DNA of 8,505 nt from Eledone cirrhosa (lineage: Eukaryota), in assembly GCA_964016885.1 (NCBI GenBank), contig CAXHJY010000471.1, forward strand, positions 1 through 8,505. Reading direction: 5' to 3'. The number at the start of each line of letters is the position of its first letter. Positions within the stretch are counted from its first letter, which is position 1. Below, piece by piece: positions 1,636 to 7,415 of the stretch. The position numbers and the translations under genes were made by a program. The notes below the pieces were generated by a model, which was not told the origin of the DNA, did no database searches, and saw only the letters and a list, made by a program, of their open reading frames with translations.

Positions 1636-1675
1636 ACATACATACATACATACATACATACATACATACATACAT
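1636..1675. repeat. (ACAT)10 microsatellite; 3' tail/target of copy A1
   Basis: Read directly; preceded by a degenerate CA-rich tract from about 1600. Confidence 0.95.
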
Positions 1676-2281
1676 GGTGGCTGCCAACTCGTTTTCGAGT
1701 ACGGCCACTACTTTATATCCATGTAGGAGAACCCCTACGGATGCGCTGAACGAGTGTGACTTTTTAGTCCAGCCAGCGATTTGAAAACTCTGGTACAAAC
1801 ACTACACTTTTGACAATTATTGACACATAGTGCTGGGCCCATGGTACCATCTGACGACAAGTGCAGAGAGATCTCCAGATATAAAGCAATGCCTGTGCCG
1901 TGAAGCTTTTATAGTGAGCAAAGGCACTGCACAAAGCCAGCCCCACTCTCTTAACCAAGATGATATTTACCAAAAAGAAGAACAAGTCAACATCATTGGA
2001 TACCATCAGGGTTGCAGGTGTTATATCAGAGTTTTCCTTCTCCTAGAATTCTGCCTTGACAAAGGCTAAGGGCCCATCTCTCCCGGTGATTTTGGATGGC
2101 CATTGACTCTTAAGAGCTCCTTTGCCCTTTGACAGGTTTTGTTTTTAGTCCTGCAGGATGTCCAAAGTCACCCTCCTCACCAAGAAAACTTGGTGGGGTT
2201 GCCAGTTTAGTCGCCAACGACCCGACCATGAGACAGGTTGTACTGGGATACATGTTACCAGTAGCACCAACTGGTGACCTG
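1676..2281 (-). mobile_element. Non-autonomous RTE-derived element, family A, copy A1 (full length, 606 bp)
   Basis: The minus strand carries the RTE-type 5'UTR motif GCCTTTGTCAAGGC..CTAGGAGAAGGAAAACTCTGA, a C2H2 ORF tip, a 3' stem-loop and a (TATG)n tail. It differs from A3 by about 12 substitutions counted by eye. Confidence 0.85.
1735..1842 (-). pseudogene. C-terminal C2H2 zinc-finger remnant of an RTE ORF (35-codon micro-ORF) in A1
   Basis: Translates MGPALCVNNCQKCSVCTRVFKSLAGLKSHTRSAHP*, matching C-x2-C-x12-H-x4-H, with the stop codon just before the 3' stem-loop. Confidence 0.75.
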
Positions 2282-2297
2282 ACATACATACATACAT

Positions 2298-2606
2298 GGT
2301 GGCTGCCAACTCGTTTTCGAGTACGGCCACTACTTTATATCCATGTAGGAGAACCCCTACCGCTGCACTGAACGAGTGTGACTTTTTAGTCCAGCCAGCA
2401 ACTTGAAAACTCTGGTACAAACACCACACCCGTGACAATTATTGACATATAGTGCTGGGCCCATGGTACCATGTGACGACAAGTGCAGAGAGATCTCCAG
2501 ATATAAAGCAATGCCTGCGCCGTGAAGCTTTTATAGTGAGCAAAGGCACTGCACAAAGCCAGTCCCACTCTCTTAACCAAGATGATATTTACCAAAAAGA
2601 AGAACA
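2298..2606 (-). mobile_element. Family A copy A2, 5'-truncated (~309 bp)
   Basis: Matches the left half of A1 with private substitutions, then breaks at GAAGAACA directly into (ACAT)15. Separated from A1 by (ACAT)4 at 2282-2297. Confidence 0.85.
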
Positions 2607-2663
2607 TACATACATACATACATACATACATACATACATACATACATACATACATACATACAT
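2604..2663. repeat. (ACAT)15 linker microsatellite
   Basis: Read directly. Confidence 0.95.
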
Positions 2664-3232
2664 GATGATGGCTGCCTCCTCGTTATCGAGTATGGCCATT
2701 GCACGATATACCATTATTAATAATTATTAATTAATTCTATCGTGCAATGCCTGTGCGTGAAGATATTTTTTAAAGTGAGGAAAAACTGTGCACTGAGCCA
2801 ATCCCACTCTCTAAGCGACAGTAGCTATAACCCAAAAAGAAGAAAAGATCAACATCATCAGTTACTACTGAGTCGCAGGTTTTATATCAGAGTTATCCCA
2901 GTTTCCTGAGTTGCCTTCTCCTAGAAGAATGCCCTGAGAAAGGCTAGGGGTCTTTCATTCCCAATGGTTTAACCGCGCGATCGAGTGTCTAGCCCGACTA
3001 TTTCTATGTCCCCGTGCATATACATACGTATGTACATGTGTATATACATATTTACACACTTTTGGGTGGCCGTTGACTCTTATGAGTTCTTCCACCCTTT
3101 GTCAGGTTTTGTTTTTTGTCCTGCAGGGTGTCCAAATTTGGTGAGGTTGCCGGTTTAGTCGCCAACGACCCGACCATGCGACAGGTTATACTGAGTTACA
3201 TGTTACCAGTAGCACTCAAGAGTGACCCGGCA
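2664..3232 (-). mobile_element. Diverged related element, family B (5' domain, 5'UTR and 3' stem-loop, no zinc-finger remnant)
   Basis: Collinear with A over about 2744-2965 and 3060-3232, with many substitutions. It has its own 3' stem-loop (2668-2699), an extra segment at about 2971-3059 and a ~22-bp deletion near 3136. Confidence 0.8.
3148..3232 (-). ncRNA. 85-nt structured 5'-terminal RNA domain, family B version
   Basis: Closing stem UGCCGG/CCGGCA, with hairpins CACU/AGUG, UACUGG/UCAGUA and GUCG-UUGG-CGAC. Covaries with the family A version. Confidence 0.55.
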
Positions 3233-3249
3233 TACATACATACATACAT

Positions 3250-3855
3250 GGTGGCTGCCAACTCGTTTTCGAGTACGGCCACTACTTTATATCCATGTAG
3301 GAGAACCCCTACCGATGCGCTGAACGAGTGTGACTTTTTAGTCCAGCCAGTGACTTGAAAACTCTGGTACAAACACTACACTTGTGACAATTACTGACAC
3401 ATAGTGCTGGGCCCATGGTACCATGTGACGACAAGTGCAGAGAGATCTCCAGATATAAAGCAATGCCTGTGCCGTGAAGCTTTTATAGTGAGCAAAGGCA
3501 CTGCACAAAGCCAGTCCCACTCTCTTAACCAAGATGATATTTACCAAAAAGAAGAACAAGTCAACATCATTGGATACCATCAGGGTTGCAGGTGTTATAT
3601 CAGAGTTTTCCTTCTCCTAGAATTCTGCCTTGACAAAGGCTAAGGGGTCATCTCTCCCGGTGATTTTGGATGGCCATTGACTCTTAAGAGCTCCTTTGCC
3701 CTTTGACAGGTTTTGTTTTTAGTCCTGCAGGATGTCCAAAGTCACCCTCCTCACCAAGAAACCTTGGTGGGTTTGCCAGTTTAGTCGCCAACGACCCGAC
3801 CATGGGACAGGTTGTACTGGGATACATGTTACCAGTAGCACCAACTGGTGACCTG
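3250..3855 (-). mobile_element. Family A copy A3 (full length, 606 bp)
   Basis: Same architecture as A1; appears identical to A4 and A5. Confidence 0.88.
3309..3416 (-). pseudogene. C2H2 zinc-finger ORF remnant in A3 (also at 2357-2464, 4021-4128, 4725-4832, 5417-5524, 6174-6281)
   Basis: Translates MGPALCVSNCHKCSVCTRVFKSLAGLKSHTRSAHR*. The A2 copy has lost the last His (..SHTRSVQR*). Confidence 0.75.
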
Positions 3856-3858
3856 ACA
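3774..3858 (-). ncRNA. 85-nt structured 5'-terminal RNA domain, family A version (also at 2200-2284, 4486-4570, 5190-5274, 5882-5966)
   Basis: Closing stem UGUCAG/CUGGCA, with hairpins CACC/GGUG, UACUGG/CCAGUA and GUCG-UUGG-CGAC, followed by UAAA. Compensatory changes versus family B. Confidence 0.55.
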
Positions 3859-3961
3859 TAACATACATAACATACATACATACATACATACATACATACA
3901 TACATACATACATACATACATACATACATACATACATACATACATACATACATACATACAT
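3856..3961. repeat. Interrupted linker ACATA-ACAT-ACATA-(ACAT)23
   Basis: Read directly, 106 bp. Confidence 0.92.
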
Positions 3962-4567
3962 GGTGGCTGCCAACTCGTTTTCGAGTACGGCCACTACTTT
4001 ATATCCATGTAGGAGAACCCCTACCGATGCGCTGAACGAGTGTGACTTTTTAGTCCAGCCAGTGACTTGAAAACTCTGGTACAAACACTACACTTGTGAC
4101 AATTACTGACACATAGTGCTGGGCCCATGGTACCATGTGACGACAAGTGCAGAGAGATCTCCAGATATAAAGCAATGCCTGTGCCGTGAAGCTTTTATAG
4201 TGAGCAAAGGCACTGCACAAAGCCAGTCCCACTCTCTTAACCAAGATGATATTTACCAAAAAGAAGAACAAGTCAACATCATTGGATACCATCAGGGTTG
4301 CAGGTGTTATATCAGAGTTTTCCTTCTCCTAGAATTCTGCCTTGACAAAGGCTAAGGGGTCATCTCTCCCGGTGATTTTGGATGGCCATTGACTCTTAAG
4401 AGCTCCTTTGCCCTTTGACAGGTTTTGTTTTTAGTCCTGCAGGATGTCCAAAGTCACCCTCCTCACCAAGAAACCTTGGTGGGTTTGCCAGTTTAGTCGC
4501 CAACGACCCGACCATGGGACAGGTTGTACTGGGATACATGTTACCAGTAGCACCAACTGGTGACCTG
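3962..4567 (-). mobile_element. Family A copy A4 (full length)
   Basis: Appears identical to A3; the ORF-track translations match. Confidence 0.88.
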
Positions 4568-4665
4568 ACATAACATACATAACATACATACATACATACA
4601 TACATACATACATACATACATACATACATACATACATACATACATACATACATACATACATACAT
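4568..4665. repeat. Interrupted linker ACATA-ACAT-ACATA-(ACAT)21
   Basis: Read directly, 98 bp. Confidence 0.92.
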
Positions 4666-5271
4666 GGTGGCTGCCAACTCGTTTTCGAGTACGGCCACTA
4701 CTTTATATCCATGTAGGAGAACCCCTACCGATGCGCTGAACGAGTGTGACTTTTTAGTCCAGCCAGTGACTTGAAAACTCTGGTACAAACACTACACTTG
4801 TGACAATTACTGACACATAGTGCTGGGCCCATGGTACCATGTGACGACAAGTGCAGAGAGATCTCCAGATATAAAGCAATGCCTGTGCCGTGAAGCTTTT
4901 ATAGTGAGCAAAGGCACTGCACAAAGCCAGTCCCACTCTCTTAACCAAGATGATATTTACCAAAAAGAAGAACAAGTCAACATCATTGGATACCATCAGG
5001 GTTGCAGGTGTTATATCAGAGTTTTCCTTCTCCTAGAATTCTGCCTTGACAAAGGCTAAGGGGTCATCTCTCCCGGTGATTTTGGATGGCCATTGACTCT
5101 TAAGAGCTCCTTTGCCCTTTGACAGGTTTTGTTTTTAGTCCTGCAGGATGTCCAAAGTCACCCTCCTCACCAAGAAACCTTGGTGGGTTTGCCAGTTTAG
5201 TCGCCAACGACCCGACCATGGGACAGGTTGTACTGGGATACATGTTACCAGTAGCACCAACTGGTGACCTG
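4666..5271 (-). mobile_element. Family A copy A5 (full length)
   Basis: Appears identical to A3. Confidence 0.88.
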
Positions 5272-5357
5272 ACATAACATACATAACATACATACATACA
5301 TACATACATACATACATACATACATACATACATACATACATACATACATACATACAT
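5272..5357. repeat. Interrupted linker ACATA-ACAT-ACATA-(ACAT)18
   Basis: Read directly, 86 bp. Confidence 0.92.
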
Positions 5358-5963
5358 GGTGGCTGCCAACTCGTTTTCGAGTACGGCCACTACTTTATAT
5401 CCATGTAGGAGAACCCCTACCGATGCGCTGAACGAGTGTGACTTTTTAGTCCAGCCAGTGACTTGAAAACTCTGGTACAAACACTACACTTGTGACAATT
5501 ACTGACACATAGTGCTGGGCCCATGGTACCATGTGACGACAAGTGCAGAGAGATCTCCAGATATAAAGCAATGCCTGTGCCGTGAAGCTTTTATAGTGAG
5601 CAAAGGCACTGCACAAAGCCAGTCCCACTCTCTTAACCAAGATGATATTTACCAAAAAGAAGAACAAGTCAACATCATTGGATACCATCAGGGTTGCAGG
5701 TGTTATATCAGAGTTTTCCTTCTCCTAGAATTCTGCCTTGACAAAGGCTAAGGGGTCATCTCTCCCGGTGATTTTGGATGGCCATTGACTCTTAAGAGCT
5801 CCTTTGCCCTTTGACAGGTTTTGTTTTTAGTCCTGCAGGATGTCCAAAGTCACCCTCCTCACCAAGAAACCTTGGTGGGTTTGCCAGTTTAGTCGCCAAC
5901 GACCCGACCATAGGACAGGTTGTACTGGGATACATGTTACCAGTAGCACCAACTGGTGACCTG
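5358..5963 (-). mobile_element. Family A copy A6 (full length)
   Basis: Matches A3 except for G>A at 5912 (ACCATAGGAC versus ACCATGGGAC). Confidence 0.88.
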
Positions 5964-6114
5964 ACATAACATACATAACATACATAACATACATACATAC
6001 ATACATACATACATACATACATACATACATACATACATACATACATACATACATACATACATACATACATACATACATACATACATACATACATACATAC
6101 ATACATACATACAT
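5964..6114. repeat. Interrupted linker (ACATA-ACAT)2-ACATA-(ACAT)32
   Basis: Read directly, 151 bp. Confidence 0.92.
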
Positions 6115-6554
6115 GGTGGCTGCCAACTCGTTTTCGAGTACGGCCACTACTTTATATCCATGTAGGAGAACCCCTACCGATGCGCTGAACGAGTGTGACT
6201 TTTTAGTCCAGCCAGTGACTTGAAAACTCTGGTACAAACACTACACTTGTGACAATTACTGACACATAGTGCTGGGCCCATGGTACCATGTGACGACAAG
6301 TGCAGAGAGATCTCCAGATATAAAGCAATGCCTGTGCCGTGAAGCTTTTATAGTGAGCAAAGGCACTGCACAAAGCCAGTCCCACTCTCTTAACCAAGAT
6401 GATATTTACCAAAAAGAAGAACAAGTCAACATCATTGGATACCATCAGGGTTGCAGGTGTTATATCAGAGTTTTCCTTCTCCTAGAATTCTGCCTTGACA
6501 AAGGCTAAGGGGTCATCTCTCCCGGTGATTTTGGATGGCCATTGACTCTTAAGA
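6115..6554 (-). mobile_element. Family A copy A7, 5'-truncated (~440 bp, lacks the structured 5' domain)
   Basis: Matches A3 up to CTCTTAAGA, then runs into (TACA)n. Confidence 0.88.
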
Positions 6555-7020: not shown

Positions 7021-7180
7021 TTAGGCACAATTTGTAAGGAATCGAAAATCGATTACATTGACTGGTACTTATTTTATCGACCTTGAAAGGATAAAAGGCA
7101 AAGTTGATCTCAGTTAAAATTGAATTTAAAATGTAAAGGCATTTTGTCCGACGGTTACCGATTCTGCTAATCCATCGCCA
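7021..7180 (-). mobile_element. Second, more decayed copy of the tRNA-derived SINE
   Basis: ACTGGTACTTATTTTATCGACCTTGAAAGGATAAAAGGCAAAGTTGATCTC aligns with about 409-460; the B box is degenerate. Confidence 0.7.
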
Positions 7181-7291: not shown

Positions 7292-7415
7292 AACCTTTCA
7301 TCATAATTTAGATGAAAAACTTTGTGTCCTAATTACATCTGAAGTGAGCAAGTGACTTGTCATTCAGATGGTAATTAGGAACAAAGTTTCTCATCTAAAA
7401 TTATGATGGAAGGTT
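7292..7415. repeat. Long imperfect palindrome (~60-bp arms, 3-nt loop), MITE-like foldback
   Basis: The left arm AACCTTTCATCATAATTTAGATGAAAAACTTTGTGTCCTAATTACATCTGAAGTGAGCAAG matches the reverse complement of the right arm, AACCTTCCATCATAATTTTAGATGAGAAACTTTGTTCCTAATTACCATCTGAATGACAAG. The loop is TGA at 7353-7355. Confidence 0.85.

Follow-up and report, generated by a model that had tools for sequence, protein, structure and literature searches.

The survey of Ruminski 2011 is said to be the main account of the ribozymes of RTE retrotransposons. Small self-cleaving ribozymes fall into about ten known classes (PMC10085705, in its available part), and RTE heads elsewhere bear HDV-like or twister ribozymes (passages of PMC6765202 and PMC8501958). 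The HDV-like ribozymes of R2, RTE, and L1Tc occupy the 5'-terminal position of a non-LTR element, as does the head described below; those of R2 are flexible, according to the available passages of PMC3774820, except at the catalytic C and at four positions, and the 77-nt head of L1Tc is presented in those of PMC4758252 as promoter and ribozyme. The twister T-variants of Perere-3 resemble our head in belonging to the RTE clade, in beginning the element, and in taking their upstream bases from the flank (PMC8501958, in part). The 5' ends of AviRTE, lizard Bov-B, and RTE-4_AMi, as given in file 6 of PMC4844689 and in the accessible part of PMC13295347, look HDV-like by eye: their strands follow the order of a nested double pseudoknot and covary, the loop is unusual, and they have no fixed starting G.

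The 8,505-nt stretch of DNA analysed here (the window) carries on its minus strand a cluster of two related short elements, of families A and B, with (ATGT)n between them and six copies of an 85-mer (Table 1). The A and B copies of this 85-mer had been put forward as a candidate self-cleaving RNA at the 5' end of an RTE element, and were quoted correctly on the minus strand (85 nt each, 12 differences). We conclude that the 85-mer is the core of a real RTE 5' head, apparently undescribed and matching no catalogued RNA family. A literature search gave no description of it; Repbase and Dfam, which lay outside its scope, may record the family and possibly the motif. The word "ribozyme" was not found in the accessible text of PMC9115989, and the head was not found in 12 of the 33 supplement files of PMC10294476. 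The window also holds two diverged copies of another SINE-like repeat (418-488 and 7069-7139) and a MITE-like inverted repeat (7292-7415) with 37-nt arms and terminal 18-nt arms.

Table 1. Positions in the window of the conserved head, its predicted parts, and the elements that bear it.
Feature	Position	Strand	Basis or remark
Core of conserved head, family A, 85 nt	3774..3858	-	Sequence comparison
Core of head, family B, 85 nt	3148..3232	-	Sequence comparison
Further 85-mer copies	2200-2284, 4486-4570, 5190-5274, 5882-5966		Search of window
Full conserved head, ~190 nt	3669..3860	-	Core plus a less conserved second domain
Head 5' boundary	Within 3669..3860	-	Inside UAUG preceding UCAGG
P1, predicted to close a three-way junction	3855-3851 with 3812-3808 (span 3808..3855)	-	6/6 lineages, RNAalifold
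Stem 2, covarying	3839..3850	-	Variable in sequence and length
Stem 3, invariant	3815..3837 (3837-3832 with 3820-3815)	-	11-nt loop with CAUG (3828-3825)
Second CAUG, predicted pseudoknot partner of stem-3 loop	3801..3804	-	Invariant
3' hairpin domain with invariant GAC-UAAA-C strand	3775..3800	-	Two possible registers; C3784 = candidate catalytic base
Downstream hairpin	3752..3769	-	Compensatory changes at two pairs; missing by deletion from the B copy of the window
Family A multimer	3243..6554	-	Four complete units of ~610 nt plus a 5'-truncated fifth, (ATGT)n joins
Family B copy	2663..3232	-	Bipartite non-autonomous RTE
Older complete A copy and A fragment	1669..2606	-	Copy 1669-2284 (head 2200-2284); 5'-truncated fragment 2291-2606

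In the 3.0-Gb genome searched (G000), family A gave 12,375 exact matches to a 24-mer of its body and 9,346 to its first 24 bases, with 0 for the reversed controls, and the 85-mer caps at least 9,346 family-A copies. The only homolog found outside the genome was the metagenome contig L061, in which an APE endonuclease frame follows the motif on the same strand at a distance of ~700 nt; the protein of this endonuclease led to an intact APE+RT family in G000, with up to 58% identity. This autonomous partner has a 1,211-aa frame (Pfam Exo_endo_phos and RVT_1) and shares its UTR and 3' end with both short families, at ~88% (B) and ~69% (A) identity in the mid-UTR and ~95% (B) and 82-88% (A) at the 3' end. 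Hence A and B are bipartite non-autonomous RTE-type elements. The partner itself is probably an RTE-clade non-LTR retrotransposon, judging from its N-terminal motifs, which we take to be RTE-type, and from a UTR word shared with AviRTE; a microsatellite 3' tail and 5'-truncated copies, both traits of the clade, are present. Like the bipartite non-autonomous RTE elements of PMC5786205, A and B consist of a 5' head, a UTR part, and an RTE 3' end that carries a microsatellite tail, while the available passages of that article describe no such head.

Further searches of the genome added lineages C, D1, and D2. Among 30 loci each of C and D, 2 of either lineage have an endonuclease frame downstream of the head, on the same strand, so that the head caps RTE endonuclease frames and the proposed assignment to an RTE element holds; in the young autonomous family, none of the 20 copies examined has the head. 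Altogether, 176 distinct head copies were gathered, 165 of them in six lineages (A 56, B 49, C 32, D1 19, D2 8, M 1) and 11, decayed or unclustered, excluded from these. A profile search over all 310 loci gave no additional lineage. A diverged family seen in run X6 had 2 matches in G000 against 3 in the control and was dismissed as absent, pattern matches outside the genome (five bacterial, one viral) were attributed to chance, and neither a protein scan nor two further viral patterns gave anything. A tRNA-like head was absent from four of four loci, which thus do not qualify as a tRNA-derived Pol III SINE, and Pol III is made less likely by the T5 runs within A and B.

Several rearranged copies were also seen. 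Tandem repeats of the 5' domain of the head only (~57-70 nt) stand directly upstream of D-family copies (L190:694-1500 and L187:1369-1496), with more than 20 units at C12:7006442-7007691, and two B-family copies (L038:1457-1671 and L042:1455-1667) have a piece of their own head region inverted at the 5' junction. In the young autonomous RTE (L124, L126, L137, and L138), an unrelated, sharply starting 5' region is found ~1.7 kb upstream of the endonuclease match; it contains a splice-donor-like word and simple repeats and is perhaps a captured host first exon.

The core (columns 29-96 of the alignment) is 84-98% identical between the six lineages and the next 110 columns 69-93%, whereas the endonucleases compared between lineages are 44-58% identical, which argues for selection on the core rather than chance. 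The alignment of L061 with D ends after ~200 nt. Positions invariant in all six lineages number 27 of 33 in columns 31-63 and 26 of 30 in columns 67-96; stem 2 has 3 of 16 and the columns beyond 44 of 76, and numerous invariant bases are unpaired in every fold model. A high-depth contig from another organism, compared together with 30 flanking letters, matches 3777-3840 only, with 10 differences, and its hairpin at the site of stem 2 is longer.

The elements have a sharply defined 5' edge. Among 30 copies picked by a body pattern, 21 begin at unit position 1-2 and the remaining 9 are scattered, which bears out the placing of the 85-mer at the element's 5' end. Four bases ahead of the first G, the T is doubled at 26 of 101 junctions, compared with 21 of 828 upstream sites (p 8e-15), which shows that the junction forms at a fixed place. 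An extra G precedes the first G in just 14 of 139 junctions, 6 of these being head duplications, and there is thus little sign of a cap. The search for target-site duplications left 5 usable cases only, because the targets are microsatellites. The young autonomous RTE likewise has a sharp start, following ATG, in 4 of its longest copies. A sharp end therefore does not need this RNA, and the sharpness of the boundary is as compatible with a promoter as with a ribozyme. In some A copies (L071, L073, L074, L080, L089-L091; 6/65), one more GTCAG is present at the 5' junction; this is the doubled word that begins the D and L061 heads.

Two peripheral hairpins of the head covary. Five different sequences and three lengths preserve the stem 2 hairpin, whose covariation the sequence-only reading had proposed from two copies, and the hairpin just downstream of the core has two compensatory pairs; together they point to selection on the folded strand. 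Most of the other changes listed by that reading were weaker evidence than claimed, and its long-range closing stem is unsupported in the form proposed. The U.G to C-G change in the closing stem and the G-C to G.U change in stem 3 are minority B variants, the A-type letter being kept in 91% and 83% of 49 B copies, and the UAUG variant of the CAUG pairing is one substitution in one of the four complete units of a young multimer. The closing pair taken as compensatory is A-U in A and G-C in B, but A.C in C, D1, D2, and M. Moreover, in a 17-copy alignment the long-range closing stem has its key pair unpaired in 8 copies and pairs in 86% of cells. Stem 2, stem 3, and the loop-to-loop CAUG pairing of that reading are compatible with all lineages; the fold that included the closing stem is not the minimum-energy fold of A.

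P1, an alternative helix (CAGGU/ACCUG), pairs in 6/6 lineages and in 98.8% of cells, was picked unprompted by RNAalifold, and reads the A-to-G change of B as A-U to G.U. In our model, the 5' domain is predicted to be a three-way junction, the stem-3 loop could pair with the second CAUG (a predicted pairing extendable to 6 bp in lineages D and M), and the 3' part would fold locally into a hairpin, for which there are two registers. None of the core pairs shows a compensatory change. The core helices being invariant across lineages, the core fold is a prediction. Constrained energies, calculated on one copy each, favour the earlier fold in A and B (by 2-4 kcal/mol) and the P1 fold in C, D1, D2, and M; in single-sequence folding, P1 has an ensemble probability of at most 0.25, and both folds may be populated. 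For 4/4 minus-strand 85-mers, single-copy folding against shuffles gave non-significant z-scores of -0.33 to -0.89. The repeated GGUCRG word permits several registers and could be a protein site.

The head also matched none of the known ribozyme cores. Up to E 10, Rfam models found no ribozyme in the window or in five loci, the sub-threshold matches being mostly to simple repeats. Hammerhead, twister, twister-sister, pistol, hatchet, and hairpin ribozymes each have class core words. For the hammerhead, CUGANGA was found in 0 of 165 copies and GAAA in 4 of 165; the twister loop-4 consensus with the GAGGG strand after P2 was found in 0 of 165, and the pistol, hatchet, twister-sister, and hairpin words in 0-1 of 165 each. 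This agrees with the initial failure to fit a class by eye. A strict HDV-like descriptor (nested double pseudoknot, 3-bp P3, 7-8-nt L3, P1 3' contiguous with P3, P1.1), run without a positive control, had no fit in A, B, or C and no fit common to at least 5 of the 6 lineages; a relaxed one was too permissive to discriminate. Fits by hand or by eye were also discarded: the best HDV-order fit, starting at column 30, paired 81% of cells, below all 500 shuffles, and predicted a start used by 0 of 30 copies, while pistol-like and hatchet-like strand orders lacked the core bases and put their cut sites off the boundary.

Likenesses to HDV-like ribozymes nevertheless exist. C-UAAA is invariant in 6/6 lineages and may correspond to the J4/2 strand that holds the HDV-like catalytic C with its downstream A; the head has a C-UAA strand after GG and a short hairpin, a nested-pseudoknot chain order in the model, and a first G able to oppose a pyrimidine. 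It differs in that no register common to the lineages has a 3-bp P3 with a 7-8-nt loop leading directly into P1 3' and GG; the equivalent helices are 6 and 4-6 bp long, and a clear P2 is lacking. Given the flexibility of R2 ribozymes in the available part of PMC3774820, the head could be a rearranged HDV-like relative. From the twister T-variants of Perere-3 (PMC8501958, in part) it differs by the absence of the loop-4 word and the GAGGG strand in 165/165 copies and of an Rfam twister match. By eye, the heads of AviRTE, lizard Bov-B, and RTE-4_AMi (available parts of PMC4844689 and PMC13295347) resemble ours in the GAC-NAA strand, in a U...CRU loop borne on a 3-bp stem, and in a word of the UTR further downstream; their 7-bp helix, from the very 5' end to the strand after the loop, is absent here in that register.

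The multimers bear on how complete any cleavage would be. One irregular junction occurs 29 times, 20 of them in a 38-unit array at C4, 4 at C3, 4 in the window, and 1 at C2, and the multimers at C2, at C3, and in the window each begin with a truncated unit at their 5' end. This shared junction, together with the truncated first unit, indicates that reverse transcription of a multimeric RNA ran through the head boundary, which argues against complete cleavage. The array, a tandem array of family A with higher-order repeats (C4:249593600-249617930, L241-L243, in G000), is the likely source of the dispersed multimers; array read-through, template jumping, or a circular template could each account for their origin.

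We tentatively favour, at somewhat less than even probability, a conserved RTE head with a three-way junction, a loop pseudoknot, and a 3' hairpin that would cleave itself and so free the element from read-through transcripts. The head RNA would cut near U-G at 3858/3857, and, as the C-N-AA strand of HDV-like ribozymes would suggest by analogy, C3784 of GAC-UAAA would be the putative catalytic base; the cut would release the element from the longer transcript; incomplete cleavage in tandem arrays would leave uncleaved multimers to be copied occasionally. Self-cleavage is favoured because of the precedents in the clade, the invariant unpaired bases, the RNA-level covariation at the periphery, the T runs that speak against Pol III, and the weak cap signal. 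That the three-way junction, loop pseudoknot, and GAC-UAAA catalytic strand define a new structural ribozyme class is unlikely.

An internal promoter is nearly as probable as self-cleavage: an RNA polymerase II promoter starting at its own 5' edge, its conserved blocks being DNA sites, is a somewhat unlikely reading that would account for the sharp boundary, for a core invariant rather than covarying, and for the uncleaved multimers. The repeated RGGTCR words of the head resemble nuclear-receptor half-sites. The young autonomous family has replaced the head by an unrelated, equally sharp 5' region, and LINE heads of ~70 bp read as promoters, with the dual L1Tc head, offer precedents (PMC4758252, in part); like the latter, our head could be both promoter and ribozyme. 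The length-variable, covarying hairpins inside it speak against a promoter, as do the little cap-G signal and the initiator-like TCAG, whose A is G in 77% of B copies. It is quite unlikely that the head is a non-catalytic structured RNA, serving RTE protein binding, cap-independent translation, or 5'-end protection, and possibly what is left of the large P4 domain and the GAC-NAA strand once present in an ancestral HDV-like head. Its retention by the non-autonomous A and B and its conservation over ~190 nt would suit this role, as would, by eye, the words in the same order as in the 3' half of the AviRTE and Bov-B heads (in the available parts of their sources) and the UTR word downstream; yet such an RNA does not by itself explain the precise 5' end, and the young autonomous family copies without the head. 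Neutral sequence, alike through recent common descent or horizontal transfer and paired by chance, is highly improbable: folding z-scores near zero and a single full-sequence homolog outside the genome are in its favour, but identity is higher in the core than in the endonucleases and the UTR alignment ends after ~200 nt, a conservation profile that already refutes this reading in large part.

The candidate, 85 nt long, comes with natural variants and a predicted cut site and can be tested cheaply, and RTE systems are under development for gene insertion (PMC13708176, in its available part). Even if non-cleaving, the head would be a compact LINE promoter or a protein-binding RNA relevant to RTE transcription. 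If the head did represent a new class, that class would have taken over 5'-end processing in one RTE lineage, with more than 10,000 genome copies, and its incomplete cleavage in arrays would seed multimeric insertions. In RTE heads, several ribozyme classes substitute for one another.
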